Of a DNA stretch of 64,000 bases, positions 30,234-62,708 are shown one piece after another. The translations under genes were made by a program, and so were the position numbers. The notes beneath the pieces are model-generated. The model searched no databases, was not told where the DNA came from, and worked only from the letters and a program-made list of their open reading frames with translations. Source of the stretch: Escherichia coli (GTDB lineage: Bacteria; Pseudomonadota; Gammaproteobacteria; Enterobacterales; Enterobacteriaceae). Each line of letters begins with the position of its first letter. Within the stretch, counting starts at the first letter, position 1. The stretch lies in NCBI RefSeq assembly GCF_013122565.1, contig NZ_CP053258.1. One strand, 5' to 3'.

Positions 30234-30256
30234 TTATTCTCTCCTGGAGTTAAAAA

Positions 30257-31639: not shown

Positions 31640-31708
31640 AGGCTCATAATTTCTGGTGATTTTATACCGCCAACTTTACTCGCCAGGCTCTGATTTTCCG
31701 GTGACAGG

Positions 31709-31730
31709 AAAATGACAAAATTGTCATTTT
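31709..31730. promoter_or_regulatory. CusR box, perfect palindrome in the cusC/cusR divergent promoter
   Basis: aaaatgacaaaattgtcatttt: 10-bp inverted repeat around a 2-bp centre, matching the known CusR site AAAATGACAANNTTGTCATTTT. Confidence 0.7.
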
Positions 31731-31795
31731 GCCAATAAGCGATTGCCATCTGATCCCGCTACTCTAGAATTGCCCGGGCAACATGCGGAGGAAAT

Positions 31796-32479
31796 ATGAA
31801 ACTGTTGATTGTCGAAGATGAAAAGAAAACCGGAGAATACTTGACCAAAGGGTTAACCGAAGCCGGTTTTGTGGTCGATTTGGCCGACAACGGGCTGAAT
31901 GGCTACCATCTGGCGATGACCGGTGATTATGATCTGATAATCCTCGATATTATGCTGCCGGACGTGAACGGCTGGGATATCGTGCGCATGTTGCGCTCCG
32001 CCAATAAAGGGATGCCGATTCTGTTGCTTACCGCGCTTGGCACCATTGAACATCGCGTCAAGGGGCTGGAGTTGGGGGCAGATGACTACCTGGTGAAACC
32101 ATTCGCTTTTGCTGAACTACTGGCGCGGGTGCGCACTCTCCTGCGGCGCGGGGCGGCGGTGATTATCGAAAGTCAGTTTCAGGTTGCCGATCTGATGGTC
32201 GATCTCGTCAGCCGCAAAGTCACCCGCAGCGGCACGCGCATCACTTTGACCAGTAAAGAGTTTACTCTGCTGGAGTTTTTTCTCCGCCATCAGGGCGAAG
32301 TGCTGCCCCGCTCGCTTATCGCCTCGCAGGTATGGGACATGAATTTTGACAGCGACACTAACGCCATTGATGTGGCGGTGAAGCGGCTGCGCGGCAAAAT
32401 CGACAACGACTTTGAGCCGAAGCTGATTCAGACCGTGCGCGGCGTGGGCTATATGCTTGAGGTACCTGATGGTCAATAA
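31796..32479 (+). CDS. cusR: response regulator CusR (OmpR family)
   Basis: 227-aa [23 protein letters not shown]...; receiver Asp region [10 protein letters not shown] and winged-helix C-terminus. Confidence 0.93.
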
Positions 32480-33911
32480 GCCATTTCAGCGCCCGTTTTC
32501 GCTGGCAACCCGCCTGACCTTTTTTATCAGCCTGGCCACCATCGCGGCGTTTTTCGCCTTTGCATGGATCATGATCCACTCAGTAAAAGTGCATTTTGCC
32601 GAGCAGGATATTAATGATTTAAAAGAGATTAGCGCCACCCTTGAACGGGTACTAAATCACCCTGACGAAACGCAAGCCCGACGCTTAATGACGCTGGAAG
32701 ATATCGTCAGTGGTTATTCCAATGTGTTGATTTCCCTGGCAGATAGCCAGGGTAAAACGGTGTATCACTCCCCCGGTGCGCCGGATATCCGCGAGTTTAC
32801 GCGTGACGCCATACCCGATAAAGACGCTCAGGGCGGCGAGGTATATCTCCTTTCCGGCCCGACGATGATGATGCCAGGCCACGGTCACGGGCATATGGAA
32901 CACAGCAACTGGCGGATGATCAGTTTGCCAGTTGGCCCACTGGTTGACGGCAAACCGATTTATACGCTCTACATCGCGCTTTCGATCGATTTTCATCTTC
33001 ATTACATAAATGATTTGATGAATAAACTTATTATGACCGCATCGGTCATCAGCATCCTGATCGTCTTTATCGTGCTGTTGGCGGTACATAAAGGTCACGC
33101 GCCGATCCGCAGCGTCAGCCGTCAAATCCAGAATATCACCTCGAAAGATCTCGACGTCCGCCTTGACCCGCAGACCGTGCCCATTGAGCTGGAACAGCTG
33201 GTACTGTCGTTCAACCATATGATCGAGCGTATTGAGGATGTCTTTACCCGCCAGTCCAATTTCTCAGCGGATATCGCTCACGAAATTCGCACGCCAATTA
33301 CGAATCTCATAACGCAAACCGAAATCGCCCTCAGCCAGTCGCGCAGCCAGAAGGAGCTGGAAGATGTGCTCTACTCTAATCTCGAAGAGCTGACGCGAAT
33401 GGCGAAAATGGTCAGCGATATGCTGTTTCTCGCCCAGGCCGATAACAACCAGTTAATCCCCGAAAAGAAAATGCTCAACCTGGCGGATGAAATCGGCAAA
33501 GTGTTCGATTTTTTCGAGGCTTTAGCGGAAGATCGCGGCGTGGAGCTGCGATTTGTTGGCGACGAATGTCAGGTTGCGGGCGATCCGCTAATGCTGCGTC
33601 GGGCGTTAAGCAACCTGCTTTCTAATGCCCTGCGTTATACGCCACCCGGAGAGGCAATTGTAGTGCGCTGCCAGACGGTCGATCACCAGGTGCAAGTTAC
33701 CGTCGAAAACCCCGGTACGCCCATTGCGCCCGAACACTTACCGCGATTGTTTGACCGTTTCTACCGCGTTGACCCCTCCCGCCAGCGAAAAGGCGAAGGT
33801 AGCGGCATTGGGCTGGCGATAGTGAAATCAATTGTTGTCGCACATAAAGGCACGGTTGCAGTAACGTCAGATGCGCGGGGGACAAGGTTTGTTATCACAT
33901 TACCCGCTTAA
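32469..33911 (+). CDS. cusS: copper/silver sensor histidine kinase CusS
   Basis: ORF track 32457..33911; start placed at [16 protein letters not shown] (480 aa); H-box [11 protein letters not shown]; periplasmic Met/His-rich stretch [13 protein letters not shown]; overlaps cusR 3' end. Confidence 0.9.
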
Positions 33912-34060
33912 TTATTCAGCAAACGGCAACTTTTATAACCAGTGTAAAAATAACGTGCCGCAATAGTCATACCTATTAATGGTAAAAAGCTGTCACAATT
34001 CATAAAAAACCTTAATATACGCCACCCTAAACATAACCAGCGTTAATGTAAGGTTTTTGT

Positions 34061-36298
34061 GTGGACTGGCTTCTTGATGTTTTTGCTACCTGGCTCTACG
34101 GCTTAAAAGTAATCGCGATAACGTTAGCGGTCATCATGTTCATCAGCGGGCTGGACGATTTTTTTATTGATGTCGTCTACTGGGTACGCCGCATTAAACG
34201 CAAGTTGAGTGTTTATCGCCGCTACCCGCGAATGAGTTACCGCGAACTGTATAAACCAGATGAAAAACCGTTAGCGATTATGGTTCCGGCGTGGAATGAA
34301 ACGGGCGTCATCGGCAATATGGCCGAGCTGGCGGCGACCACGCTCGACTACGAAAACTATCATATCTTTGTTGGCACCTACCCCAACGACCCCGATACTC
34401 AGCGTGATGTTGACGAAGTGTGCGCTCGCTTTCCGAACGTGCATAAGGTAGTCTGCGCGCGTCCTGGTCCCACCAGCAAAGCCGACTGTCTGAACAACGT
34501 GCTGGACGCCATCACCCAATTTGAGCGTAGCGCCAATTTCGCATTTGCTGGTTTTATTCTGCATGACGCCGAAGATGTGATTTCACCGATGGAATTGCGT
34601 CTGTTCAACTATCTGGTCGAGCGTAAAGATCTGATTCAGATCCCGGTGTATCCGTTTGAACGCGAATGGACGCACTTCACCAGCATGACTTACATTGATG
34701 AGTTTTCAGAACTGCATGGCAAAGATGTTCCGGTGCGTGAAGCCCTCGCCGGACAAGTGCCCAGCGCAGGCGTCGGCACCTGTTTCAGCCGCCGCGCCGT
34801 GACCGCACTGTTAGCTGACGGTGACGGTATTGCTTTCGACGTGCAGAGTCTTACTGAAGATTACGACATTGGCTTCCGCCTGAAAGAAAAAGGTATGACG
34901 GAAATTTTTGTCCGTTTTCCGGTGGTGGACGAAGCCAAAGAACGCGAGCAGCGTAAATTTTTACAGCACGCACGGACATCAAACATGATCTGCGTGCGCG
35001 AATATTTCCCCGATACCTTTTCGACTGCGGTTCGACAAAAATCCCGCTGGATCATCGGCATTGTTTTCCAGGGCTTTAAAACCCATAAATGGACCTCCAG
35101 CCTGACGCTGAACTACTTTCTCTGGCGCGACCGCAAAGGGGCAATCAGTAACTTTGTCAGCTTCCTCGCGATGCTGGTGATGATCCAGCTTTTGCTGTTG
35201 CTGGCGTATGAAAGTTTGTGGCCCGATGCCTGGCATTTCCTTTCTATTTTCAGCGGCAGCGCATGGTTAATGACCCTGCTGTGGCTAAACTTTGGTTTGA
35301 TGGTTAACCGCATCGTGCAGCGGGTGATTTTCGTTACTGGCTACTACGGCCTGACGCAGGGGCTGCTTTCCGTCCTGCGTCTTTTCTGGGGCAACCTGAT
35401 TAACTTCATGGCCAACTGGCGCGCGCTAAAACAGGTACTCCAACACGGCGATCCACGTCGCGTCGCGTGGGATAAAACAACGCATGACTTCCCCAGCGTG
35501 ACTGGCGATACCCGCTCGTTGCGCCCGTTAGGCCAAATTCTGCTGGAAAATCAGGTCATCACTGAAGAACAACTCGATACAGCATTGCGTAATCGCGTCG
35601 AAGGTCTACGCCTGGGCGGTTCAATGCTGATGCAGGGGCTGATTAGCGCCGAGCAACTGGCACAGGCGCTGGCAGAGCAAAACGGCGTGGCGTGGGAGTC
35701 GATCGATGCCTGGCAGATCCCTGCCTCGCTGATTGCCGAAATGCCAGCCTCCGTAGCGCTGCATTATGCAGTACTGCCGCTGCGTCTGGAAAATGATGAG
35801 TTAATTGTCGGCAGTGAAGATGGTATTGACCCGGTTTCGCTGGCGGCCCTGACGCGTAAAGTCGGACGCAAAGTGCGTTACGTCATTGTTCTGCGGGGAC
35901 AAATTGTCACGGGGTTACGTCACTGGTATGCACGCCGACGCGGTCACGATCCGCAGGCAATGTTGTACAATGCGGTTCAGCATCAGTGGCTCACGGAACA
36001 GCAGGCCGGTGAAATCTGGCGGCAATATGTGCCGCATCAGTTCCTGTTCGCCGAAATACTGACCACGCTCGGTCATATTAATCGTTCAGCAATTAACGTG
36101 TTGTTATTGCGCCATGAACGCAGTTCTCTGCCGCTCGGCAAGTTTTTGGTCACCGAAGGCGTTATCAGCCAGGAAACGTTGGATCGCGTCCTGACAATTC
36201 AACGCGAATTACAAGTTTCGATGCAATCACTATTACTCAAAGCAGGTTTAAACACAGAACAGGTTGCGCAACTGGAGTCCGAAAATGAAGGAGAATAA
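34061..36298 (+). CDS. nfrB: NfrB, inner-membrane GT2 glycosyltransferase with C-terminal MshEN-type c-di-GMP-binding region (phage N4 adsorption protein B)
   Basis: 745-aa ORF, GTG start, MDWLLDVFATWLYGLKVIAITLAV...; MshEN-like motif RLGGSMLMQGLISAEQLAQALAEQ near the C-terminus. Confidence 0.9.
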   Translation: MDWLLDVFATWLYGLKVIAITLAVIMFISGLDDFFIDVVYWVRRIKRKLSVYRRYPRMSYRELYKPDEKPLAIMVPAWNETGVIGNMAELAATTLDYENYHIFVGTYPNDPDTQRDVDEVCARFPNVHKVVCARPGPTSKADCLNNVLDAITQFERSANFAFAGFILHDAEDVISPMELRLFNYLVERKDLIQIPVYPFEREWTHFTSMTYIDEFSELHGKDVPVREALAGQVPSAGVGTCFSRRAVTALLADGDGIAFDVQSLTEDYDIGFRLKEKGMTEIFVRFPVVDEAKEREQRKFLQHARTSNMICVREYFPDTFSTAVRQKSRWIIGIVFQGFKTHKWTSSLTLNYFLWRDRKGAISNFVSFLAMLVMIQLLLLLAYESLWPDAWHFLSIFSGSAWLMTLLWLNFGLMVNRIVQRVIFVTGYYGLTQGLLSVLRLFWGNLINFMANWRALKQVLQHGDPRRVAWDKTTHDFPSVTGDTRSLRPLGQILLENQVITEEQLDTALRNRVEGLRLGGSMLMQGLISAEQLAQALAEQNGVAWESIDAWQIPASLIAEMPASVALHYAVLPLRLENDELIVGSEDGIDPVSLAALTRKVGRKVRYVIVLRGQIVTGLRHWYARRRGHDPQAMLYNAVQHQWLTEQQAGEIWRQYVPHQFLFAEILTTLGHINRSAINVLLLRHERSSLPLGKFLVTEGVISQETLDRVLTIQRELQVSMQSLLLKAGLNTEQVAQLESENEGE

Positions 36299-39257
36299 CC
36301 TTAATCGCGTCATCGGATGGTCTGGTTTACTGCTGACGTCTTTATTGAGTACCAGCGCACTCGCAGACAATATCGGCACCAGCGCAGAAGAGCTGGGGCT
36401 GAGCGATTATCGCCATTTTGTTATTTATCCCCGTCTCGATAAGGCGCTGAAGGCACAGAAAAATAACGACGAAGCAACCGCCATCCGCGAATTTGAATAT
36501 ATACACCAGCAGGTGCCGGATAATATTCCGCTGACTTTATACCTTGCGGAAGCCTATCGCCATTTTGGTCATGATGACCGGGCGCGGCTGTTGCTTGAGG
36601 ATCAACTGAAACGTCACCCAGGAGATGCCCGACTTGAGCGCAGTCTGGCGGCTATTCCAGTTGAAGTGAAAAGCGTTACGACAGTTGAAGAACTGCTTGC
36701 CCAGCAAAAAGCGTGCGATGCTGCGCCGACCCTGCGTTGTCGCAGTGAAGTCGGACAGAATGCCCTGCGGCTGGCACAGTTAGCTGTCGCCAGAGCGCAA
36801 CTGAACGATGCGACGTTTGCTGCATCGCTGGAAGGAAAAACGCTGCGAACCGATCTGCTGCAACGGGCAATCTACCTGAAACAATGGTCCCAGGCAGATA
36901 CGCTATACAATGAAGCACGCCAGCAGAACACATTAAGCGCGGCAGAACGCCGTCAGTGGTTTGACGTGCTTCTTGCCGGGCAGCTGGACGATCGGATCCT
37001 GGCACTGCAATCACAGGGGATCTTCACCGATCCTCAGTCATATATTACTTACGCGACCGCGCTGGCTTATCGTGGCGAAAAAGCACGCCTCCAGCATTAT
37101 CTCATTGAAAATAAGCCGCTGTTTACCACGGACGCACAAGAGAAAAGTTGGCTCTATCTGTTATCTAAATACAGCTCCAACCCCGTTCAGGCGTTGGCGA
37201 ATTATACGGTACAGTTTGCCGACAACCGCCAGTATGTTGTTGGCGCGACGCTACCGGTGCTGTTAAAAGAAGGTCAGTACGACGCAGCGCAAAAACTGCT
37301 CGCCACCCTCCCCGCCAATGAAATGCTTGAGGAGCGTTATGCTGTCAGCGTGGCGACCCGTAACAAGGCTGAAGCTCTGCGTCTGGCACGCTTGCTGTAT
37401 CAGCAAGAACCGGCAAATCTTACCCGCCTGGATCAACTAACCTGGCAACTGATGCAGAACGAGCAGTCACGGGAAGCTGCCGATTTATTGCTGCAACGCT
37501 ATCCTTTCCAGGGCGATGCGCGTATCAGCCAGACTTTAATGGCGCGACTGGCGTCTCTGCTGGAAAGTCATCCTTACCTGGCAACGCCGGCGAAGGTGGC
37601 GATTTTATCGAAACCCTTACCGCTGGCGGAGCAACGTCAGTGGCAAAGTCAGTTGCCGGGTATTGCAGATAATTGCCCGGCAATAGTTCGCTTGCTGGGC
37701 GATATGTCACCTTCCTACGATGCCGCCGCCTGGAACCGTCTGGCAAAGTGTTATCGGGACACGCTACCCGGTGTGGCGTTGTATGCATGGCTTCAGGCCG
37801 AACAACGACAACCGAACGCCTGGCAACATCGTGCGGTAGCCTATCAGGCGTATCAGGTTGAGGACTACGCCACCGCACTGGCGGCCTGGCAGAAAATCAG
37901 TCTTCACGACATGAGCAATGAGGATCTGCTTGCTGCTGCCAATACCGCCCAGGCGGCAGGAAATGGTGCGGCTCGCGATCGCTGGCTACAACAGGCAGAA
38001 AAACGTAGACTGGGAAGTAATGCGCTCTACTGGTGGCTGCATGCGCAACGTTACATTCCTGGTCAGCCGGAACTCGCACTGAACGATCTCACGCGCTCAA
38101 TCAATATTGCGCCTTCTGCCAACGCTTACGTTGCGCGGGCGACAATTTATCGCCAACGTCATAATGTCCCGGCCGCGGTGAGTGATTTGCGCGCCGCGCT
38201 GGAACTGGAACCGAATAATAGCAACACCCAGGCAGCGCTTGGTTACGCCTTGTGGGATAGCGGTGATATCGCACAGTCGCGGGAAATGCTCGAACAGGCG
38301 CATAAAGGGCTACCGGACGATCCGGCACTGATCCGACAACTGGCCTATGTGAACCAGCGTCTGGATGACATGCCTGCGACGCAGTACTACGCCCGGCTGG
38401 TGATTGATGACATTGATAATCAGGCGCTGATAACCCCACTGACCCCAGAGCAAAATCAGCAACGCTTCAATTTCCGCCGTCTGCATGAGGAGGTCGGTCG
38501 CCGCTGGACGTTCAGTTTCGATTCTTCCATCGGCTTGCGTTCCGGGGCAATGAGTACCGCTAACAATAATGTTGGCGGCGCAGCGCCAGGGAAAAGCTAT
38601 CGTAGCTACGGGCAACTGGAAGCCGAGTACCGCATCGGACGCAATATGCTGCTGGAAGGCGACCTGCTCTCAGTTTATAGCCGCGTCTTTGCCGATACCG
38701 GAGAAAACGGGGTGATGATGCCGGTGAAAAATCCGATGTCCGGCACCGGTCTACGCTGGAAGCCGCTGCGCGATCAGATCTTTTTCCTCGCCGTCGAACA
38801 GCAGTTGCCGCTGAACGGGCAAAATGGCGCATCCGATACCATGCTGCGCGCCAGCGCCTCATTCTTTAATGGCGGCAAATACAGCGACGAATGGCACCCG
38901 AACGGTTCAGGCTGGTTTGCCCAAAACCTGTACCTCGATGCGGCGCAATATATCCGCCAGGATATTCAGGCGTGGACGGCAGATTATCGCGTCAGCTGGC
39001 ATCAGAAGGTAGCTAACGGACAGACTATTGAGCCTTACGCTCACGTTCAGGACAACGGCTATCGTGATAAAGGCACTCAGGGCGCGCAGCTTGGCGGTGT
39101 CGGGGTCCGCTGGAATATTTGGACCGGCGAGACGCACTACGACGCCTGGCCGCACAAAGTCAGTCTCGGCGTCGAGTATCAACATACCTTTAAGGCGATT
39201 AATCAACGTAACGGAGAGCGCAACAACGCGTTTCTCACCATTGGAGTGCACTGGTAA
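36285..39257 (+). CDS. nfrA: NfrA, outer-membrane TPR/beta-barrel protein (phage N4 adsorption protein A)
   Basis: ORF track 36264..39257; start placed at MKENNLNRVIGWSGLLLTSLLSTSALA (990 aa, signal peptide); overlaps the nfrB 3' end by 14 bp. Confidence 0.9.
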   Translation: MKENNLNRVIGWSGLLLTSLLSTSALADNIGTSAEELGLSDYRHFVIYPRLDKALKAQKNNDEATAIREFEYIHQQVPDNIPLTLYLAEAYRHFGHDDRARLLLEDQLKRHPGDARLERSLAAIPVEVKSVTTVEELLAQQKACDAAPTLRCRSEVGQNALRLAQLAVARAQLNDATFAASLEGKTLRTDLLQRAIYLKQWSQADTLYNEARQQNTLSAAERRQWFDVLLAGQLDDRILALQSQGIFTDPQSYITYATALAYRGEKARLQHYLIENKPLFTTDAQEKSWLYLLSKYSSNPVQALANYTVQFADNRQYVVGATLPVLLKEGQYDAAQKLLATLPANEMLEERYAVSVATRNKAEALRLARLLYQQEPANLTRLDQLTWQLMQNEQSREAADLLLQRYPFQGDARISQTLMARLASLLESHPYLATPAKVAILSKPLPLAEQRQWQSQLPGIADNCPAIVRLLGDMSPSYDAAAWNRLAKCYRDTLPGVALYAWLQAEQRQPNAWQHRAVAYQAYQVEDYATALAAWQKISLHDMSNEDLLAAANTAQAAGNGAARDRWLQQAEKRRLGSNALYWWLHAQRYIPGQPELALNDLTRSINIAPSANAYVARATIYRQRHNVPAAVSDLRAALELEPNNSNTQAALGYALWDSGDIAQSREMLEQAHKGLPDDPALIRQLAYVNQRLDDMPATQYYARLVIDDIDNQALITPLTPEQNQQRFNFRRLHEEVGRRWTFSFDSSIGLRSGAMSTANNNVGGAAPGKSYRSYGQLEAEYRIGRNMLLEGDLLSVYSRVFADTGENGVMMPVKNPMSGTGLRWKPLRDQIFFLAVEQQLPLNGQNGASDTMLRASASFFNGGKYSDEWHPNGSGWFAQNLYLDAAQYIRQDIQAWTADYRVSWHQKVANGQTIEPYAHVQDNGYRDKGTQGAQLGGVGVRWNIWTGETHYDAWPHKVSLGVEYQHTFKAINQRNGERNNAFLTIGVHW

Positions 39258-40148
39258 ATGCGTAAGTTCATTTTCGTATTGCTGACACTGCTTTTGGTCA
39301 GCCCTTTTTCCTTTGCGATGAAAGGTATTATCTGGCAACCACAAAACCGAGATAGTCAGGTTACCGATACCCAGTGGCAGGGGCTGATGAGTCAGTTACG
39401 TTTGCAAGGCTTCGATACCCTGGTTTTGCAATGGACCCGTTACGGCGATGCATTTACCCAGCCAGAACAGCGCACGTTATTGTTTAAGCGTGCCGCAGCT
39501 GCGCAACAGGCTGGCCTGAAGCTGATTGTCGGGCTGAACGCCGATCCGGAATTTTTTATGCACCAGAAACAGTCGTCCGCAGCGCTGGAAAGCTATCTTA
39601 ATCGCCTGCTGGCTGCCGATCTCCAGCAAGCCAGATTATGGAGCGCCGCGCCTGGCGTAACGCCGGATGGCTGGTACATCAGCGCGGAAATTGACGACCT
39701 GAACTGGCGCAGCGAAGCCGCCCGTCAGCCTTTGCTAACATGGTTAAACAACGAGCAGCGGCTGATTAGCGATGTTTCAGCAAAACCGGTTTATATCAGT
39801 AGTTTTTTCGCCGGAAACATGTCGCCAGATGGCTATCGCCAACTGCTGGAACAAGTTAAAGCAACCGGCGTTAATGTCTGGGTACAGGATGGCAGCGGCG
39901 TGGATAAACTTACCGCTGAACAGCGTGAACGTTATCTACAGGCCAGCGCCGATTGCCAGAGTTCCGCCCCAGCAAGCGGCATTGTTTATGAACTGTTTGT
40001 CGCCGGCAAAGGCAAAACCTTTACAGCGAAACCGAAACCGGACGCAGAAATTGCCTCGCTGTTAGCGAAACGTTCCTCTTGCGGTAAAGACACTCTCTAT
40101 TTCTCTCTGCGCTATTTGCCCGTCGCGCACGGCATTCTCGAGTATTAA
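39258..40148 (+). CDS. ybcH: YbcH, secreted protein of the nfrBA-ybcH operon
   Basis: 296-aa ORF MRKFIFVLLTLLLVSPFSFA... (signal peptide); ATG immediately follows the nfrA TAA stop (TAAATG). Confidence 0.85.
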   Translation: MRKFIFVLLTLLLVSPFSFAMKGIIWQPQNRDSQVTDTQWQGLMSQLRLQGFDTLVLQWTRYGDAFTQPEQRTLLFKRAAAAQQAGLKLIVGLNADPEFFMHQKQSSAALESYLNRLLAADLQQARLWSAAPGVTPDGWYISAEIDDLNWRSEAARQPLLTWLNNEQRLISDVSAKPVYISSFFAGNMSPDGYRQLLEQVKATGVNVWVQDGSGVDKLTAEQRERYLQASADCQSSAPASGIVYELFVAGKGKTFTAKPKPDAEIASLLAKRSSCGKDTLYFSLRYLPVAHGILEY

Positions 40149-40330
40149 ATCTCCTCCAGGTAAGTCGGGTACGACCTGGCTTACCTCTTTCGCTCTCGTC
40201 AGAATTCCATCAAGATTAATTGCTAAAAAGCGTGCTAAAGAAAGAAGATCGTTATCGGCGAACGGGCCGATCACTCATGCAGGAAGCATAGATCCTTTGA
40301 GCGGAGTTTCTGATATCTGAGGAGTGCGAA

Positions 40331-41092
40331 ATGCAATTGAGCAGCAGTGAACCTTGCGTGGTGATCCTGACCGAAAAAGAGGTAGAGGTAAGCGTCAATA
40401 ACCATGCTACGTTTACCCTTCCGAAAAACTACCTGGCCGCCTTCGCGTGCAACAATAACGTCATTGAACTCTCAACGTTAAATCACGTATTAATCACCCA
40501 CATCAACCGTAACATCATCAACGATTATCTGTTGTTTTTAAATAAGAACTTAACCTGTGTAAAGCCCTGGTCGCGGCTGGCTACCCCGGTTATCGCTTGT
40601 CATAGCCGTACACCGGAAGTGTTCCGGCTAGCCGCCAACCACAGCAAGCAGCAACCCAGCAAACCCTGCGAAGCGGAGTTGACGCGCGCATTGCTTTTTA
40701 CCGTATTGTCTAACTTTCTTGAGCAATCGCGGTTTATTGCCCTACTGATGTATATCTTACGCAGCAGCGTCCGCGACAGCGTCTGCCGCATTATTCAAAG
40801 CGATATTCAGCATTACTGGAATCTGCGAATTGTCGCCAGTTCGCTATGTTTAAGCCCCAGCCTGCTCAAAAAGAAATTAAAAAACGAAAATACCAGCTAT
40901 AGCCAGATTGTCACAGAGTGTCGTATGCGTTACGCCGTACAGATGTTATTGATGGATAACAAAAATATCACTCAGGTGGCGCAATTATGTGGCTATAGCA
41001 GCACGTCGTACTTTATCTCTGTTTTTAAGGCGTTTTACGGCCTGACACCGTTGAATTATCTCGCCAAACAGCGACAAAAAGTGATGTGGTGA
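40331..41092 (+). CDS. envY: AraC-family regulator EnvY
   Basis: 253-aa ORF MQLSSSEPCVVILTEKEVEVSVNNHATF... with C-terminal AraC-type HTH (..ITQVAQLCGYSSTSYFISVFKAFYGLTP); AT-rich gene. Confidence 0.82.
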   Translation: MQLSSSEPCVVILTEKEVEVSVNNHATFTLPKNYLAAFACNNNVIELSTLNHVLITHINRNIINDYLLFLNKNLTCVKPWSRLATPVIACHSRTPEVFRLAANHSKQQPSKPCEAELTRALLFTVLSNFLEQSRFIALLMYILRSSVRDSVCRIIQSDIQHYWNLRIVASSLCLSPSLLKKKLKNENTSYSQIVTECRMRYAVQMLLMDNKNITQVAQLCGYSSTSYFISVFKAFYGLTPLNYLAKQRQKVMW

Positions 41093-41137
41093 AGGGCAAA
41101 GCGGAAACGGATAAGACGGGCATAAATGAAGAAGAAA

Positions 41138-41214
41138 TGGCGCGCCCTGCAGGATTCGAACCTGCGGCCCACGACTTAGAAGGTCGTTGCTCTATCCAAC
41201 TGAGCTAAGGGCGC
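41138..41214 (-). tRNA. argU: tRNA-Arg (anticodon UCU)
   Basis: Minus strand reads GCGCCCTTAGCTCAGTTGGATAGAGCAACGACCTTCTAAGTCGTGGGCCGCAGGTTCGAATCCTGCAGGGCGCGCCA: 7-bp acceptor stem, TCT anticodon in the CTTCTAAG loop, GGTTCGAATCC T-arm, encoded CCA. Confidence 0.92.
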
Positions 41215-41456
41215 GTTGATACCGCAATGCGGTGTAATCGCGTGAATTATACGGTCAACCCTTGCTGAGTCAATGGCTTTTGATCTGGTTGCTGAACAAG
41301 TGAACGACCGCGTCTGATTTTCTGATTTATTTCGCTATAGCGGCAAACAAATGCACACCGCTGCGCGTCTGAATCAAGAAAACCCGTATTTTCATGTATC
41401 AAAGTACAATTTACCGCCCTAACGGAAAATTGTCCGCTCCTATGAGACTGGTAACT

Positions 41457-42089
41457 ATGAAACCAACGTCGGTGATCATTATGGATACTCATCCTATCAT
41501 CAGAATGTCTATTGAAGTTCTGTTGCAAAAAAACAGTGAATTGCAGATTGTCCTGAAAACGGATGATTACCGCATAACCATCGATTATCTCCGAACCCGT
41601 CCTGTTGATTTAATCATTATGGATATAGACTTGCCCGGAACAGACGGTTTTACCTTCCTGAAAAGGATCAAACAAATCCAGAGCACAGTGAAAGTGTTAT
41701 TTTTATCATCGAAATCAGAATGCTTTTATGCTGGCAGAGCGATACAAGCTGGTGCTAACGGTTTTGTCAGTAAATGCAATGATCAGAATGATATTTTTCA
41801 TGCCGTTCAGATGATCCTCTCCGGATACACGTTTTTTCCCAGCGAAACGCTTAACTATATAAAAAGCAATAAATGTAGTACGAATAGTTCAACGGTCACT
41901 GTGCTATCTAATCGTGAAGTGACCATATTACGTTATCTAGTTAGCGGATTATCTAATAAAGAAATTGCCGATAAGTTATTACTTAGTAATAAAACAGTTA
42001 GTGCGCATAAATCTAATATTTATGGCAAGCTAGGTTTGCATTCAATTGTAGAGCTTATCGACTACGCCAAATTATACGAATTAATATAA
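41457..42089 (+). CDS. fimZ: LuxR-family response regulator FimZ (SfmZ)
   Basis: ORF track 41394..42089; start placed at MKPTSVIIMDTHPIIRMSIEVLL (210 aa); receiver domain plus C-terminal LuxR HTH. Confidence 0.88.
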   Translation: MKPTSVIIMDTHPIIRMSIEVLLQKNSELQIVLKTDDYRITIDYLRTRPVDLIIMDIDLPGTDGFTFLKRIKQIQSTVKVLFLSSKSECFYAGRAIQAGANGFVSKCNDQNDIFHAVQMILSGYTFFPSETLNYIKSNKCSTNSSTVTVLSNREVTILRYLVSGLSNKEIADKLLLSNKTVSAHKSNIYGKLGLHSIVELIDYAKLYELI

Positions 42090-42091
42090 TA

Positions 42092-42607
42092 TTAATTATA
42101 ATTGATCATAAATATCGCATCCGCTTTCGCCACACCTGGCCGAACACCGCTGGCTAACGCTCGATAATTGGCAAAAAAGTTTAGTGTGACATTGCCATTT
42201 GCATCTACTTCCTCAGTCGGGCTCGCCGCTCCCAGTGCGAGCCGGGAGCGATCGCTATTACGTAATTCGATGGCGACGGTTTGTGCCATTGCGGGATCAT
42301 CCAGAGCCAGCAGGTTGGCATCAGATGCCGGCGTTCCCGTAAATAAAATCGCGACCGAACCCGGAGGACATCCCTCCAGCCGCAGGCTAAAAGGGACGAG
42401 TGCCGTGGTATCGCCAGCGGTCAGTAGTTGTGTCGTAGGCCATCTGCCTAAATCTACCGTCTTATCATTATCCGCTGTGTTTACGGTACAAGAAAAATCA
42501 ACCACGTTACCGTGCAAATTGATATTAATCGTTCCTAAAGGGTCAGCTGCCCATCCACTGGAACTCCACAGTAACCCGCAGAAACAGCTAAAGAGTACTC
42601 TTCTCAT
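42092..42607 (-). CDS. sfmF: fimbrial minor subunit SfmF
   Basis: ORF track 42092..42802; start placed at MRRVLFSCFCGLLWSSSGWA (171 aa, signal peptide); fimbrial subunit fold. Confidence 0.85.
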   Translation of the reverse strand: MRRVLFSCFCGLLWSSSGWAADPLGTININLHGNVVDFSCTVNTADNDKTVDLGRWPTTQLLTAGDTTALVPFSLRLEGCPPGSVAILFTGTPASDANLLALDDPAMAQTVAIELRNSDRSRLALGAASPTEEVDANGNVTLNFFANYRALASGVRPGVAKADAIFMINYN

Positions 42608-42617
42608 TCTCCGTACC

Positions 42618-43625
42618 TCATTGATAATCGACGCGTAAATACCCCAGCGCGCTAAACGGCCCTTCGGTCGGTTTTTGACCGGTAATACTGATAGGCCAGG
42701 CGCGAAGTGTGACATTGGCTGCCGCAGCTGCATCCAGACGGAAAGGAATAACGCTATTGAGATCGTTAGGCGTGATCGGCGTATCGTTCTGATCGGCGAC
42801 AATAAAACCTAAATCCTGATTGTCCGACACCATCGCCTGACCAGAAACGGCACTGGCTTCCAGACGCATTGTTAAATAAGCCTGCGCAGCAACATTCGTA
42901 CATTTGACCGCAATGCTCTTGGTTTGCGGCATGACACCAGCAGGCCGATTACCCGGCCCTGCCGCACTAAATAACGATGCGCCGATATCACCAAAATCAA
43001 ATTCAACAATCTGCCCGGCATTTAATTCGCAGTTTTGCGGTACTTCAACCCGGCCACCAAAACTAATGGTATAAACAGGTGTAACCAACGGATCGTAAGG
43101 CGTTGATGTCACATACACGGTAAACATCACCTGTCTGGGGATCTCCACCATGTTAATAAAGGGCCGAATAACCTTTAAACGAAATATCAAACGAGAATCC
43201 ATCACCCCGAACGGAAGGTTTTGCGAAACGTTAGGATCTGTTCCCATACGAATATAATTTTGCGGGGGAAATTGAATATCCATCACACTATCAACCAGAC
43301 TCATCGCACCTAATAGATAATCATTTAATTGCATATATTTATAATTATCGATAGTTTCCTGAACAATAAAGTTAGTGACATAACTACGGTATGTATAATT
43401 CACCAGCGTGCCGGGTGGACAAATTGCTGAGACACCTACCCAGCCGGATTTTTCCGGTAAAACAACAATCTGCCCTGGCTGGTTATTGGTGCTATTAAAG
43501 ACATTTGAGAGATCATAGTGTTCATCTTCTGCTACGCCAGTACTATTTGCACAAACAGTAGCCCAGGATATGTTTGCCAGACACAAACATGCCATCGCCA
43601 ATAATAATCTGCAGATTATCTTCAT
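42618..43625 (-). CDS. sfmH: fimbrial adhesin-like protein SfmH
   Basis: 335-aa ORF MKIICRLLLAMACLCLANISWA...; the true start may be a downstream Met. Confidence 0.83.
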   Translation of the reverse strand: MKIICRLLLAMACLCLANISWATVCANSTGVAEDEHYDLSNVFNSTNNQPGQIVVLPEKSGWVGVSAICPPGTLVNYTYRSYVTNFIVQETIDNYKYMQLNDYLLGAMSLVDSVMDIQFPPQNYIRMGTDPNVSQNLPFGVMDSRLIFRLKVIRPFINMVEIPRQVMFTVYVTSTPYDPLVTPVYTISFGGRVEVPQNCELNAGQIVEFDFGDIGASLFSAAGPGNRPAGVMPQTKSIAVKCTNVAAQAYLTMRLEASAVSGQAMVSDNQDLGFIVADQNDTPITPNDLNSVIPFRLDAAAAANVTLRAWPISITGQKPTEGPFSALGYLRVDYQ

Positions 43626-43637
43626 TGATAATTTCCT

Positions 43638-46247
43638 TTATGAGCCAGGATGTGTGCAAACTGCCGAAATAACAGTGACGGCTTGCTGTAAGCTTTGCTT
43701 CGGCAATACATAGTGCGCAATGCAGCGTGAGTTCGCGCCGTCTCCCCACTGAACCAGTAATTCACCAGACAATGGCGCACCACTTAAATAAACTTGCCCG
43801 TCATCACCCACCATACTGGTTATTCCGGTACTGTTTTCCCGTACCAGTGATCCAAACGGCACCGGTTTTCCGCCCTGGGTAACGGTAATGAGCGCCCGCA
43901 CGCCTATGCGGGTATCAAAATTGGCACGAACCAACGCGCCTTGCGTCGGCACAACGCTGCTAATATTTTTTTCAACATCGATGGAATTCCCCATCGTATT
44001 GGTATCAAGCGCGATACGGTTATACCGATAAACCGTGGCATACGGCATCACCGCATAGCCGCGCCAGTCGGTTAAAATGCCAGTTTGATTTTCAATGCGT
44101 ACACCGCCTGCGCCAGGCGCTTTAATCAAAACATTGGTATCCCCTAAAGGCTGGCTCAGCGTTATGCCATTTTCATGCCCGACCACACCGCCAGACAGCT
44201 GCCAGTTAACGTCATGTTGATCGCGGTCGTAGTTATACCCGACTCCCAGCGTACCGTAAGCGGCCTGCCAGTTTGCCGTGGCGCTGCCCGTATACCCATT
44301 ATTCGAGGTATCACCCTGGCTTACGTGATAACTCAGGTTGTGGCCTTCCAGTAAGGTCCCACCTACACCTGCCAGCCAGCTATTTTGCCCGTTGCTGTTA
44401 CGGTTGGCGTTAAAGGAGGCATAAGCGCGGTCGAGCGCATTTTCCCGGGTGTAGCGACGTTTGGTCAAAACATTGAAAGGCACTGAAACATTAAGTCCGA
44501 CAATACGTTCGTTATCGGGGATCCCTACAGATTCATTCCACGAAAATGAGAGCGAATAACTGATGCCAACCCAGCTGCTGGTATACCCCACCTGATACCA
44601 CGTATCTGAATCCGAAGTATTCCAGTATTTTTGATGGGTACCAGAAATATAAAGCGAGCCAAAGTCATTAAGTGATTGTGAAATATTTAACTGCAAACGG
44701 TCTTTACGGCTAAAGCGTAAATTGTGGTAATTCACGATTATCGGTTCATCCCGATGCTCACCGTCATAATCGTAATCATATTCGTACCCCTCCATTCGAC
44801 GATACGCAACATCATCAAGGGTATAAAAACCTTGTGTCGAATAGCGGTAACCCATTAACTGAAAATTGGTGCCGAAGGTGTTCATCGATTTCGCATAGAG
44901 GAAGCGAATGGAATCCCCCTCATGACGACTGTCGTCGGCTAACTGGCTGCGCGCATGGGTCACATCCAGCGACACTGCGCCCCAGTTCCCGAGGTTGCGC
45001 CCCAGCCCTAATAAAAAGGCGGTGTAATTGGCAGATAATTGCGTCCCGCCGTAGGCAGTAAATTCCTGTGGTAAACCGCCGAGTGCCGTGCCCTGAAAAA
45101 AGAAAGGCGATGATTGCTGACTATTACCGCTACGAAAATCGCCCGCCGTCAGGTCAAATTTGAAACGCCCTTCGCGTTGTAAAATTGGCACTGTTGAATA
45201 CGGAATAGTGTAATTCTGCTGATTGCCATCGCGTTCGTCGATGGTGACGTCCAGATCGCCATTTGAAGATGTCGGGTGCAAATCTGTAATTTCAAAAGCG
45301 CCGGGGGAAACATAGCTTTGATAGATAATAAAACCATTTTGCCGAATCGTTAGCTGGGCCGCCGTACGGGCAATCCCACGTACTGTTGGGGCAAACCCTT
45401 GCTGGCTATCAGGATACATATTATCGGAAGAATAAAGCCGTACACCACGAAATCCAACACCATCGAAAATATCACTTCCTGTATTGCCGTCTCCCATTAC
45501 CAGTTCACTTTTCAGCGGAATAATGGCGCGCTGTACCCAGGTGCCAATATTATTCCACTGTTCTGAATGATATCCATTTCCGCGAAAATAGTTCCAGGAA
45601 CCATTGTTGCGTAAACGCCACGGGCCAATATTAATCCCGCTGAGCTCACTAAAAAAATAGCTATCGTTACCATTACCTCTGTTACCGGTGAAATTATAAT
45701 TCAGGAGTAAAGCAGGAATACCTTCATCCCACTCTTCAGGCGGAATGTAACCGTGAGCGCTACTCAACAACGCTATCTGAGGAATAGTGATGTTCAGGCG
45801 CATCGCTGCAAAATCAAAGTTAATTGTGGCATCAGGTACAGCTTTCAGTAAATTGATGCATTTATTGTTTTGCTGCTGGGCTAACTCGGGAAATGCACTG
45901 CTATTAAGGCCAATTCGTTCAAGGAGTACCTGGTTAAAACAGGGCATTAACCCACCTGATTTATCACCTGTATTTTCTGTTGTCGATTCAAATACGATAT
46001 CCTGTGAACCAATGAACTCATCATTACGCCAGAGATCCACCCGATACACGCCCGCAGGTTGATGATTACCTCTCTCAAAGCGCGATAAATCAGCAACGGA
46101 TGTGCCATTCTCTAATAAAAATGCCGGGTTGAAATAACTTTCCGCATAGCTTAAAAAGGAGGGTAAAATGGCAAGAGATGAATAACAAATTCCGGCCAGA
46201 CACCAGGTATACCTCTGCGGAATATCCGTAGTAGTGGGTATTTTCAT
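43638..46247 (-). CDS. sfmD: fimbrial outer-membrane usher SfmD
   Basis: 869-aa ORF typical of chaperone-usher ushers. Confidence 0.9.
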
Positions 46248-46277
46248 AATTAGCTCTGATATTGTCAGATGATTCGG

Positions 46278-46970
46278 TTAGTTTAAGTTCACTTCTCTGA
46301 CCGGGGTTACTGAACCATAATCATTAACGGTCTGAAATTTCAGCTTTCCCTGCACTCCTGAGGGTAAGGGAATTTGTGAATTAACTCTGGGTGCAGCCAT
46401 AGCATTCCCCAACTTTTGGCTGCCCACTTGTAAGTTAACCAGGGTGACATAAAAAGGTGATGGATTATGAACATTGATATAGTTACCGGATCGCGAAAAC
46501 TTGAGTGTGTCCGGCGCTTCTGCGGGTAATTCTTGTAATTGAATTGGACGGAGAAATAACTTCATGCGCGATAAAATCGCCAGTTGCAAAACATTCCTGC
46601 CGTTCAATGCATTTTTATCTACCGAAGGGATCGTCTTAACATTCATCCAGAACAGAGACTCACGATCTGCCGCCAGCGGTGGACCGGTGTAAATAATACG
46701 CAAAGTATTTTCGCTTTTGGGTTCACTAACAAACAGTGGAGGTGTAATGATGAATGACTTTTCTTTTACACCGCTGCTGTTTTCAATCCACGAATTGACC
46801 AGAAAGCGCTCATTGGTATGGCTATTTCTAATCCATACCGCAGTCTGTTTAGCATCAGCGGGATAAATAATACGCGTGGCACCTAATGCGATCCCTCCGG
46901 CAGCATGGGCGCTGGCCGAAATGATTAAATAAAATATAATGAGCATCAATAACTTTATTTTAGTCATCAT
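46278..46970 (-). CDS. sfmC: periplasmic fimbrial chaperone SfmC
   Basis: 230-aa [26 protein letters not shown]... (PapD-like chaperone). Confidence 0.9.
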
Positions 46971-47189
46971 AGTTAATACGCCTTGTGTATTCCTGACGGC
47001 AAAAATAAGAAATATAAAGAAATGATTGCTTTGGTTTCTTACAACACATCATTCCCTTTTCATTTAATAAAGCGGCATGATACAAAGTGAACATGATTTC
47101 GATTTACATTGCCACCATACCGCTTCAGACAACCGGTACATTACTTTGTTATAAGACGTGGTATATAATTCAAAACAACGTGGTTTTGA

Positions 47190-47732
47190 TTATTCGTATC
47201 TCATAATAAAAGTCGCGTCAGCATTTGCTTGCCCTGCTGATGCACTTGTACCGGTGCCTTTATAACGTGCAGAAAAATGAAGAACGTTGGTCCCGGGGAT
47301 CAAGTTCTGGTTGGTTGAGAAGCTATTCCCATCAGGTTTGAGAATTGCGGATGTATTATCAAGTATTTCAATACCGACACCCGTTGCTGTTGTTGTATTG
47401 GTACTGGATGCAATGGCCAATAAATTATCATTGATTGCATCAGCCTGACCAGAAAATGCAACGGCAGCATTAGCGGCAACAACAGGATCGCAGTCGTTCA
47501 ACTGTATAGTGAATGGAATTAATGCAGAGGTATTACCAACAGCATTGAAAATATCGGTACGATATTGACCGAGTGTGACAACCTGGTCTGCCGAGTCAGT
47601 ATTCACTGAACAGGCAGCATTCACCAGTTCGCCTTCAAAGTGAATTGTACCGCCATCTACAACGGCAGCATAACTACCCGTAGCGGCGAATAGTGCGGCA
47701 GCCAGCGCAGACGAAATAAATCTTAATTTCAT
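47190..47732 (-). CDS. sfmA: fimbrial major subunit SfmA
   Basis: ORF track 47190..47765; start placed at [22 protein letters not shown] (180 aa). Confidence 0.88.
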
Positions 47733-48210
47733 ATATATTCCTTCAATCTCATTTATCGACTCCACATCCGTATATAACCGATTACTTTATTTAAGACACT
47801 GATAGTAGTAAATTCCTTTTTATCCTCTAAGAATGTCTTAATTGAAAATATGCACTCTATTCTAAAAAATAGAGAGCCCCGTTAGATGAATACTTCCGCG
47901 CAAAATATATTCAACACAAATATAGACCTGAAGCGGTAAATTACCAGGCTGAAAATTCTTTTTATATTGTCAGGTATTTCTTAAATTATCTTAATCCTTT
48001 GACAAGGAAATAAGTCAGTTCCAGATTTACAACGCCATCATGGACGAAAAATGAAGCTTTCAATCTCAGCGACCTCAGCGACGGTGCGCCTAACCTTCGC
48101 AAGAGGCGCTTCACGCGATAAATCTGAAACGAAACCTGACAGCGCGCCCCGCTTCTGACAAAATAGGCGCATCCCCTTCGACCTACGTAACAGATGGAAT
48201 CCTCTCTCTG

Positions 48211-49077
48211 ATGGCAGCAAAGATTATTGACGGTAAAACGATTGCGCAGCAGGTGCGCTCTGAAGTTGCTCAAAAAGTTCAGGCGCGTATTGCAGCCGGA
48301 CTGCGGGCACCAGGACTGGCCGTTGTGCTGGTGGGTAGTAACCCTGCATCGCAAATTTATGTCGCAAGCAAACGCAAGGCTTGTGAAGAAGTCGGGTTCG
48401 TCTCCCGCTCTTACGACCTCCCGGAAACCACCAGCGAAGCGGAGCTGCTGGAGCTTATCGATACGCTGAATGCCGATAACACCATCGATGGCATTCTGGT
48501 TCAACTGCCGTTACCGGCGGGTATTGATAACGTCAAAGTACTGGAACGTATACACCCGGACAAAGACGTAGACGGTTTCCATCCTTATAACGTCGGTCGC
48601 CTGTGCCAGCGCGCGCCGCGTCTGCGTCCCTGCACCCCGCGCGGTATTGTCACGCTGCTTGAGCGTTACAACATTGATACCTTCGGCCTCAACGCCGTGG
48701 TGATTGGCGCATCGAATATCGTTGGCCGCCCGATGAGCATGGAACTGCTACTGGCAGGTTGCACCACCACCGTTACCCACCGTTTCACTAAAAATCTGCG
48801 TCACCACGTAGAAAATGCCGATCTACTGATCGTTGCCGTCGGCAAGCCGGGCTTTATTCCTGGTGACTGGATCAAAGAAGGCGCAATTGTGATTGATGTC
48901 GGCATCAACCGTCTGGAAAATGGCAAAGTTGTGGGCGACGTCGTGTTTGAAGACGCGGCTAAACGCGCCTCATACATTACGCCTGTTCCGGGCGGCGTTG
49001 GCCCGATGACGGTTGCCACGCTGATTGAAAACACGCTACAGGCGTGCGTTGAATATCATGATCCACAGGGTGAGTAA
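48211..49077 (+). CDS. folD: bifunctional methylenetetrahydrofolate dehydrogenase / methenyl-THF cyclohydrolase FolD
   Basis: 288-aa [26 protein letters not shown]... Confidence 0.95.
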
Positions 49078-49078
49078 C

Positions 49079-49291
49079 ATGGCGACATTTTCTTTAGGTA
49101 AACATCCGCACGTTGAGCTGTGCGACTTGCTGAAACTGGAAGGCTGGAGCGAAAGCGGCGCGCAGGCGAAAATCGCGATTGCCGAAGGCCAGGTGAAAGT
49201 TGATGGCGCGGTTGAAACGCGCAAACGCTGCAAAATCGTCGCCGGTCAGACAGTGAGTTTTGCAGGTCACAGCGTACAGGTTGTTGCCTGA
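49079..49291 (+). CDS. ybcJ: S4-like RNA-binding protein YbcJ
   Basis: ORF track 49025..49291; start placed at MATFSLGKHPHVELCDLLK (70 aa), 1 bp after the folD stop. Confidence 0.85.
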   Translation: MATFSLGKHPHVELCDLLKLEGWSESGAQAKIAIAEGQVKVDGAVETRKRCKIVAGQTVSFAGHSVQVVA

Positions 49292-49398
49292 TCCCTTTCC
49301 CGGCCTGTATCAACAGGCCGGTTCTCTTTTCAGACTTTTGCCCTCTACGCCCCGTTCATCCATGCTGATAGCATCGACATTTTGCCGAAGCGACCATC

Positions 49399-49920
49399 AT
49401 GCCAACCGTTATTACGCACGCCGCCGTTCCCCTATGCATTGGTTTAGGGTTGGGTTCGAAAGTCATCCCTCCGCGTCTGTTATTTGCCGGAATCATCCTG
49501 GCGATGCTGCCCGACGCAGACGTATTGTCGTTTAAATTTGGCGTTGCTTACGGCAATGTTTTTGGTCATCGCGGGTTTACCCATTCGCTGGTGTTTGCGT
49601 TTGTTGTCCCGCTGTTATGTGTGCTGATTGGACGCCGATGGTTCAGGGCTGGGCTGATTCGCTGCTGGCTGTTTTTAACCGTCTCGTTGCTATCGCACAG
49701 CATGCTGGATTCGGTAACCACTGGTGGTAAGGGTGTTGGCTGGCTGTGGCCGTGGTCAGATGAACGCTTTTTCGCTCCCTGGCAGGTGATTAAAGTCGCG
49801 CCGTTTGCATTGTCTCGTTACACCACAGCGTACGGGCATCAGGTGATTATTTCTGAATTGATGTGGGTGTGGTTGCCGGGGATGCTACTGATGGGAATGT
49901 TGTGGTGGCGCAGACGATAA
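49399..49920 (+). CDS. ybcI: inner-membrane protein YbcI (DUF457)
   Basis: 173-aa hydrophobic ORF MPTVITHAAVPLCIGLGLGSK... Confidence 0.85.
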   Translation: MPTVITHAAVPLCIGLGLGSKVIPPRLLFAGIILAMLPDADVLSFKFGVAYGNVFGHRGFTHSLVFAFVVPLLCVLIGRRWFRAGLIRCWLFLTVSLLSHSMLDSVTTGGKGVGWLWPWSDERFFAPWQVIKVAPFALSRYTTAYGHQVIISELMWVWLPGMLLMGMLWWRRR

Positions 49921-49944
49921 CCGGATGCGAAAACTCGCATCCGG
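49921..49944. other. stable hairpin between the convergent ybcI and cysS 3' ends
   Basis: ccggatgcg-aaaact-cgcatccgg, 9-bp perfect stem; no clear U-tract on either strand, so terminator function is uncertain. Confidence 0.35.
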
Positions 49945-49955
49945 CAATAGCGCAA

Positions 49956-51341
49956 TTACTTACGACGCCAGGTGGTCCCTTGCGGGCCATCTTCCAGCAC
50001 GATCCCCATCTCATTAAGACGGTCACGCGCCGCATCTGCCGCCGCCCAGTCTTTCGCTTTACGGGCATCCAGACGCTGTTGAATTAACGCTTCAATCTCA
50101 GCCACTTCGCTGTCGTCTGCCTGCGCGCCGCTTTGCAGGAACGCTTCCGGTTCTTGCTCCAGCAGGCCCAGTACGGCGGAAAGTTTACGCAGGTGAGATG
50201 CCATTGCATTCGCCGCTGCCATATCTTCTGCTTTCAGACGGTTCACTTCACGCGCCATATCAAACAGCACGGAATAGGCTTCCGGGGTGTTGAAATCGTC
50301 GTCCATCGCTTCAATAAAGCGCGCTTCAAACGCTTCGCCACCGGCAGGGGCAACAGATTTATCCGTACCGCGCAGCGCAGTGTAGAGACGCTCCAGCGCC
50401 GCACGCGCCTGCTTCAGGTTCTCTTCGCTGTAGTTCAGTTGGCTGCGATAGTGGCCCGACATCAGGAAGTAACGCACGGTTTCCGCGTCGTAGTATTTCA
50501 GCACATCACGCACGGTGAAGAAGTTACCCAGCGATTTGGACATCTTCTCGCGGTCAACCATCACCATCCCGGAGTGCATCCAGTAGTTCACATACTGGCC
50601 ATCATGCGCACAGGTGGACTGAGCGATTTCGTTCTCGTGGTGCGGGAACATCAGGTCTGAACCGCCGCCGTGGATATCAAAGTGGTTACCCAGCTGCTTG
50701 CAGTTCATTGCCGAACATTCAATGTGCCAGCCTGGACGGCCCGCGCCCCACGGAGACGGCCAGCTCGGTTCGCCCTCTTTCGACATCTTCCACAGAACGA
50801 AGTCCATCGGGTTGCGTTTGTCATCAACCACGTCAACGCGCGCGCCAGCCTGCAACTGGTCGAGATCCTGACGCGACAGCACGCCATAAGTCGGATCGGT
50901 CGGGACGTCGAACATCACGTCGCCGTTGTCCGCCACATAAGCGTGACCTTTGGCGATCAGTTGTTCAGTGAGTTCAATAATTTCTGCGATATGGTGTGTC
51001 GCGCGCGGCTCCATATCCGGGCGCAAAATGTTCAAAGCATCAAAATCTTTGTGCATTTCGGCGATCATGCGATCCACCAGCGCCACAAAGCTTTCGCCAT
51101 TTTCATTGGCGCGTTTGATGATTTTGTCGTCGATATCGGTAATGTTGCGTACATACTTCAGCTTATAGCCGAGGAAACGCAGATAGCGCGCAACCACGTC
51201 AAAGGCAACAAAGGTACGCCCGTGACCGATATGACAGAGATCGTAAACGGTGATTCCACACACGTACATGCCGACTTCCCCGGCGTGAATAGGCTTAAAT
51301 TCCTCTTTTTGGCGTGTCAGAGTATTGAAGATTTTTAGCAT
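49956..51341 (-). CDS. cysS: cysteine--tRNA ligase CysS
   Basis: 461-aa [18 protein letters not shown]... with HIGH motif (CHIGHGRT) and KMSKS motif. Confidence 0.95.
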
Positions 51342-51514
51342 CGAAGATTCCGTTTAGACATGTGTGGGTAATTGAGTTGCGTATAATACCCATATTTCCC
51401 GCGCGAATCAGCATACATTGCGTGATGATCCGATCGTGCGGTTATGCTATAACACCACCCTATATATGACCCGAACTGGGTTGAAGCACCAATCAAACGG
51501 AACAGGATGCAAAA

Positions 51515-52009
51515 ATGGTTACTTTCCACACCAATCACGGCGATATTGTCATCAAAACTTTTGACGATAAAGCACCTGAAACAGTTAAAAACTTCCTGGA
51601 CTACTGCCGCGAAGGTTTTTACAACAACACCATTTTCCACCGTGTTATCAACGGCTTTATGATTCAGGGCGGCGGTTTTGAACCGGGCATGAAACAAAAA
51701 GCCACCAAAGAACCGATCAAAAACGAAGCCAACAACGGTCTGAAAAATACCCGTGGTACGCTGGCAATGGCCCGTACTCAGGCTCCGCACTCTGCAACTG
51801 CACAGTTCTTCATCAACGTGGTTGATAACGATTTCCTGAACTTCTCTGGCGAAAGCCTGCAAGGTTGGGGCTACTGCGTGTTTGCTGAAGTGGTTGAAGG
51901 CATGGACGTGGTAGACAAAATCAAAGGTGTTGCAACCGGTCGTAGCGGTATGCACCAGGACGTGCCAAAAGAAGACGTTATCATTGAAAGCGTGACCGTT
52001 AGCGAGTAA
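51515..52009 (+). CDS. ppiB: peptidyl-prolyl cis-trans isomerase B (cyclophilin)
   Basis: 164-aa [30 protein letters not shown]... Confidence 0.95.
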
Positions 52010-52011
52010 TC

Positions 52012-52734: not shown

Positions 52735-52763
52735 ATACCCACAACTTTGCTGATTTCACAGCC

Positions 52764-52779
52764 ACGCAACCGTTTTCCT
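52764..52779. promoter_or_regulatory. candidate PurR operator upstream of purEK
   Basis: acgcaaccgttttcct resembles the 16-bp PUR box (ACGCAAACGTTTTCNT-like), about 70 bp upstream of the purE ATG. Confidence 0.5.
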
Positions 52780-52850
52780 TGCTCTCTTTCCGTGCTATTC
52801 TCTGTGCCCTCTAAAGCCGAGAGTTGTGCACCACAGGAGTTTTAAGACGC

Positions 52851-54424: not shown

Positions 54425-54441
54425 CCTGGTGCTCATTTGAT

Positions 54442-54529
54442 TGCCGGATGCGGCGTGAACGCCTTATCCGGCTTAACGCTCCGGTACCCATTGTAGGCCT
54501 GATAAGACGCGTCAAGCGTCGCATCAGGC
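54442..54529. repeat. pair of REP elements (BIME-like) between purK and ybcF
   Basis: tgccggatgcggcgtgaacgccttatccggc and gtaggcctgataagacgcgtcaagcgtcgcatcaggc; coordinates anchored to the purK and ybcF stops. Confidence 0.6.
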
Positions 54530-54560
54530 ATAGTGCACCGATTGCTGGATGCTCTCATCA

Positions 54561-62631: not shown

Positions 62632-62673
62632 GTCCTACCACTCGCCTGATTATTTTTAGCTATGTTGGATTTT

Positions 62674-62700: not shown

Positions 62701-62708
62701 GCAACATA

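Follow-up and report, generated by a model that had tools for sequence, protein, structure and literature searches.

In Escherichia coli K-12 MG1655, the cryptic prophage DLP12 is annotated at 564755-586056 (21.3 kb), between argU and envY. The gene order is sfmF, fimZ, argU, DLP12, envY, ybcH, nfrA, which agrees with the order given in an earlier note on this DNA (DLP12, from intD to appY and ompT, between argU and envY). Envelope regulator gene and tRNA gene are thus not natively adjacent in MG1655, as DLP12 intervenes. The prophage contains, among others, intD, xisD', emrE, ybcK, rusA, quuD, nmpC, essD/rrrD/rzpD, borD, nohD, tfaD, appY and ompT. For their integration, DLP12-type phages use site-specific recombination at a 47-nt core, which lies in the 3' end of argU. 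In an occupied chromosome, attL is therefore marked by a complete argU beside the integrase, and attR by a partial copy of 47 nt beside envY.

In Shigella and EIEC, ompT and DLP12 are missing together (Nakata et al. 1993, reviewed in PMC5723341), a pathoadaptive trait of textbook standing; the review left open whether the prophage was never hosted or was excised. In the B lineage, intD and most of the prophage are kept, and a deletion runs from the prophage interior through ompT, envY, ybcH, nfrA and nfrB to cusS. Wang et al. (2010, PMC3105296) constructed a laboratory deletion, BW25113 delta-DLP12, planned such that argU stays intact and a single attachment site remains. For 638 genomes, a survey of the locus-specific distribution of DLP12 has been published (PMC6379469). 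The presence or absence of DLP12 at argU is an ordinary, already described strain polymorphism, and the empty arrangement can be seen in public reference genomes from that of O157:H7 Sakai onwards. The feature as such is already known.

Structure of the envY-argU-fimZ junction

The analysed stretch of E. coli DNA (64 kb, hereafter the window) contains an empty junction at 41093-41456, from the end of envY to the start of fimZ, with argU on the minus strand in between (Table 1). The distance of 45 bp between envY and argU, and the position of fimZ on the other side, had been claimed in the earlier note and were borne out by the ORFs, ARAGORN and Rfam. The only ORFs within 40149-42089 were envY and fimZ.

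Table 1. Features at the envY-argU-fimZ junction of the window
Feature	Position	Strand	Description
envY	40331..41092	+	AraC-family regulator, 253 aa; ORF; bacterial gene on the attR side
envY stop-argU 3' end spacer	41093..41137		exactly 45 bp, read directly
att core	41136..41182	-	47 nt: final 45 nt of argU and 2 nt (TT) downstream; single copy
argU, tRNA-Arg(UCU), intact	41138..41214	-	ARAGORN and Rfam
argU promoter-like site	41246..41273	-	TTGACT, 16-nt spacer, TATAAT; consensus scan, 11/12 matches
argU-fimZ intergenic region	41215..41456		242 nt; bacterial flank on the attL side; collinear with K-12
fimZ	41457..42089	+	LuxR-type response regulator, sfm fimbrial cluster; 210-aa ORF, K-12 start MKPTSV; K-12 and TR01 annotation

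All parts of the junction were highly similar to K-12 and Sakai. The envY gene showed 2 mismatches in 762 nt to K-12 envY and none to Sakai envY, and the RefSeq annotation of an identical stretch is envY. The argU gene (Rfam tRNA score 72.1 bits, E 8e-14) was identical to K-12 argU in 77 of 77 positions and also identical to Sakai argU; ARAGORN found it to be the sole tRNA in the 64 kb. The argU-fimZ intergenic region had three mismatches to K-12 and one to Sakai. Rfam families were searched for in the spacer and in this intergenic region, and nothing beyond the tRNA was found. The promoter-like site, with its end 32 nt upstream of argU (5' end), may from its position serve this gene; it is a pattern match.

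In the neighbouring sfm cluster, sfmH (42618-43625, minus strand) is an intact ORF of 335 aa in the window. The TR01 copy is annotated as a pseudogene with an internal stop.

In K-12, 47 consecutive nucleotides are identical between attL and attR, and the attR length in a published analysis is also 47 bp (PMC6379469), the same as the core found here. In a three-way alignment, the window consisted of the left flank of K-12 attL, the core and the right flank of K-12 attR, with 0 extra bases. A blast of the whole window against K-12 541892-627288 was collinear, both flanks matched and the breakpoints lay exactly at the core: window 30258-41185 corresponded to K-12 596981-586054, and window 41136-54552 to K-12 564801-551401. 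The 45-bp spacer is the bacterial flank to the right of K-12 attR (one mismatch to K-12, one to Sakai). It contained no phage sequence, and no terminator-like hairpin was found in it.

The 3' segment of argU (49 nt) was present in one copy in the window, even with up to three mismatches allowed, and in two copies in K-12. No 15-mer of the 47-nt core occurred outside 41136-41182 in the whole 64 kb. A blastn of the 21-kb DLP12 interior against the whole window gave no match; hence, ompT and appY are not in the window. The earlier note had seen no integrase, phage gene or duplicated tRNA 3' segment here, and both the empty DLP12 search and the single core support it. The 3' end of argU is not abutted by intD; the envY spacer stands there instead. 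There is likewise no partial argU copy at the far end, the mark of an occupied site, as a second core is missing.

An intact tRNA-Arg(UCU), a single core, bacterial flanks joined directly at the core and the lack of phage DNA together mean an unoccupied attB. It is therefore essentially certain that the locus represents the attB(argU) of DLP12-type lambdoid prophages in a clean and unoccupied state.

The described strains differ from the window to various degrees. K-12 MG1655 has the same flanks and core, but 21.3 kb of prophage lie between its two cores and none in the window. BW25113 delta-DLP12 is a laboratory deletion, whereas the window is a natural allele with the same junction product. 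In Shigella and EIEC, ompT and DLP12 are jointly absent at argU, as in the window; apart from this, nothing in the window points to these organisms. With only one IS element found in the 64 kb, Shigella is an unlikely source of the DNA. In the B lineage (C3029/BL21-type), ompT is missing from the argU region, as in the window. However, intD is retained in the B lineage, while in the window envY-nfrB is complete and the prophage is absent. A B-type deletion was not found: envY, ybcH and nfrA are intact ORFs, and the DNA through nfrB to cusS aligns with K-12 as a single collinear block without gaps.

The same layout is seen in the reference genome of O157:H7 Sakai (sfmZ - argU ECs_R0030 - envY ECs_0598). 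Gene order, 45-bp spacer (one mismatch), argU and envY are as in the window, and there is no prophage. A difference exists further away: Sakai, TR01 and several other strains carry an island of 11-12 kb (VgrG/DcrB-like/Rhs-toxin/ISAs1) between cusS and nfrB, and the window (~33900) is without it, like K-12. The identity of the window to TR01 (O157:H7) was 98.9% over 24 kb. The missing Rhs/VgrG island and this identity indicate that the source of the window is not O157.

The argU site in other genomes and its history

The frequency of the arrangement was determined in 5426 complete RefSeq E. coli genomes. The site was counted as contiguous when ≥80% of a 1201-nt envY-argU-fimZ query was matched in one piece. 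This was the case in 2504 genomes (~46%), and an argU-integrase junction was found in 2772. The empty site is not a special feature of this strain but the commonest single state of the locus.

The occupied forms were diverse. C325 has a 12-kb remnant at argU with intD, ybcK, emrE, an alpha/beta hydrolase gene and ompT, and without appY. NCTC9022-type genomes have a 3.4-kb remnant (int', tfa', ybcY, ompT) between two att copies. Of their envY, no more than ~39 nt from the 3' end is left, adjacent to the partial att copy (L006 16439-17096). The whole fimZ/sfm cluster is gone as well, so that argU adjoins folD. About 1000-1100 of the 5426 genomes are in this configuration.

Joining of the flanks across the 47-nt repeat during assembly, with the prophage present in the source, is very improbable. 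The exact junction is found in the 2504 finished genomes, an 872-kb contig of the nearest relative has it with 0 mismatches over 35-47 kb, and a repeat of 47 nt is shorter than ordinary reads. What speaks for such an artefact is that, in the same lineage, a contig from short reads (Logan, ERR10017525, L031) stops ~30 nt into the att core, equivalent to window position 41165; assemblies may thus in some cases branch at the core. If the ERR10017525 sample held a second copy of the core, e.g. from a prophage or a mixed population, a k=31 graph would branch at this point.

Integration followed by precise excision across an identical 47-nt core leaves no mark. Hence, the sequence fits both a site that was never occupied and one that was vacated. 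On balance, the lineage most likely, though by no means surely, kept the ancestral, never-occupied state. An EnvY scan of species-representative genomes found the outgroup E. albertii NBRC 107761, in which nfrA-ybcH-envY-(0.7 kb)-argU-fimZ-sfm follow each other with a single core and without a prophage. The prophage-free envY-argU-fimZ neighbourhood therefore predates E. coli. Among the relatives, the closest complete genomes (PapM-32-1, GF3-3 and others) all cover the site contiguously; the best match of the window to a complete RefSeq E. coli genome was 99.1% over 24 kb. The nearest relative, the draft genome GCA_009766295.1 (99.81% over 19 kb), has the same contiguous arrangement.

Some observations stand against a site that was never occupied. 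The argU-integrase junction in 2772 of 5426 genomes, together with decayed DLP12-type remnants that have an att copy on either side and occur in very different backgrounds (NCTC9022-type, C325, K-12, B), shows that occupation is old and widespread. Moreover, the occupied C325 was among the 30 closest matches to the window flanks (98.8%).

The existence of an occupied relative with similar flanks also speaks for the alternative that a DLP12-type prophage once sat at argU and was lost by precise integrase/excisionase excision. This would have restored attB and removed ompT (and appY, if present). The junction is as expected for it, with one core and no scar. DLP12 leaves K-12 at low frequency (in <1 in 1e5 cells), and in the engineered deletion, which "mimics natural excision", a single att site remains (PMC3105296). 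The same alternative was left open for Shigella/EIEC (PMC5723341). On the other hand, excision needs two events and continuous absence none, the E. albertii outgroup and 46% of the E. coli genomes are empty, and most of the occupants seen were degraded, with internal deletions eroding them in place instead of a clean exit. We regard a past excision as unlikely, while deserving consideration, and a recent one as somewhat less likely still.

For the intergenic DNA of E. albertii, it was observed that the envY-argU gap is ~0.7 kb of AT-rich DNA (L010 5470-6176). It includes an ORF of 160 aa (5597-6079) with no NCBIfam match and no E. coli counterpart.

A third history is that an occupied allele was swapped for an empty one by homologous recombination with another E. 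coli (transduction or conjugation). We compared per-kb mismatch profiles of the window with Sakai, TR01, K-12, GCA_009766295.1, C325 and B. The window is mosaic, and the closest identity shifts block by block. With respect to GCA_009766295.1, there were 0 mismatches/kb at 35-47 kb but 4-14/kb at 28-31 kb. The envY gene is the same as in O157, with differences of 1-3% in the neighbouring blocks. The rather distant best complete-genome match given above is also in line with an exchange. However, no tract bounded around the att site was visible in these profiles: the region at 40-42 kb is near-invariant (0-7/kb) across all of these genomes and gave no signal. Such a replacement is improbable, more so than excision, and the never-occupied state is still preferred.

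Other features of the window

The ent/fep part of the window (1-17933) had 96.85% identity to K-12, compared to ~98.3% for the rest. This lower identity points to a mosaic, recombined history. Between cusC and cusF, K-12 has 127 bp (596982-597108) that are absent from the window (30255-30258) and from other strains, where the gap is 23 bp. The K-12 segment is probably a repeat-element insertion.

An IS150 element (IS3 family, 1.44 kb) was found at 18168-19607, with orfA at 19041-19562 and orfB at 18193-19044, both on the minus strand. It is inserted a short way upstream of hokE, which is intact (17944-18096, minus strand), and, by K-12 coordinates (~607766), splits the sokE antisense RNA gene. 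In K-12, IS186 lies on the opposite side of hokE; IS186 is missing from the window. Of a 2.2-kb query across this insertion, ≥80% was matched by 504 complete genomes. An Rfam 'sok' match at 19533-19688 (minus strand) scored 61.6 bits against a gathering score of 59 and overlapped the last 75 nt of IS150. As this marginal score straddles the IS boundary, the match is a candidate sok only. Further Rfam sRNA matches above the gathering score were STnc480 (62638-62704, minus strand, 85.8 bits) and ES036/CssrF (17102-17143, plus strand, 47.3 bits).

ompT and appY at an empty argU site

In K-12, ompT and appY are cargo of the prophage and are consequently not found at an empty argU locus. The earlier note had gone further and deduced from the absent DLP12 that the strain has no OmpT protease and no AppY regulator. 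Its structural part stands, as the junction is clean. The phenotype does not follow from the argU locus: Sakai and TR01 are empty at argU and nevertheless carry ompT elsewhere.

In Sakai, the lambda-like prophage Sp8 (1618292-1662679) lies beside icd and carries ompT (ECs_1663) at its right end. Of the K-12 DLP12 stretch, 49% aligned to Sp8 with 93-99% identity. In effect, Sp8 is a relative of DLP12 that is more complete and occupies another attachment site. TR01 has the same layout as Sakai: its argU site is empty, and ompT terminates a DLP12-like lambdoid prophage next to icd/minCDE.

The ompT CDS of TR01 (L003 20001-20954) was 100% identical to K-12, compared to 98.5-98.6% in other O157:H7 strains. 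When 324 nt of flanks were included, the identity fell to 96.6%, which implies that the flanks are ~13% divergent. This pattern could reflect a gene-sized recombination or an artefact of assembly or polishing.

Within the 5426 genomes, ompT was present in 3095 and appY in 837 (missing from 85%). By inclusion-exclusion on 2504 and 3095, at least 173 genomes must have both an empty site and ompT. A Sakai-type ompT context was found in 336 genomes. Together with the 2772 occupied genomes, this amounts to 3108, which is near the 3095 ompT-bearing genomes. Most other empty-site genomes are therefore probably without ompT; about 13% of those with an empty site, largely O157:H7 lineage, would be expected to have the gene. 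The estimate was built on marginal counts, not on a genome-by-genome table; it suggests that a non-O157 strain with an empty site is likely to lack ompT (roughly 85-90% by marginal counts). An ompT-negative and appY-negative phenotype of the source strain is only probable from the 64-kb window.

We also considered whether the prophage AppY is a copy of the neighbouring EnvY, captured via imprecise excision. The two proteins share 44% identity, and this over the 96-aa C-terminal helix-turn-helix domain only. Such a likeness is generic AraC/GadX subfamily similarity, and the idea was rejected.

The importance of the empty site is slight beyond annotation. Should the prophage have been excised recently, this would be evidence from a natural population that "grounded" prophages remain excisable, and a single clean event could suffice for the loss of ompT, as has been suggested for Shigella/EIEC pathoadaptation. 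In any case, with argU empty, the K-12 DLP12 cargo (ompT, appY, emrE, nmpC and the lysis genes) is not at the locus, and argU is free for integration. Whether ompT or another prophage-borne gene is present should be judged genome-wide, since the same cargo rides on related prophages integrated elsewhere, as in O157:H7 with Sp8 beside icd.
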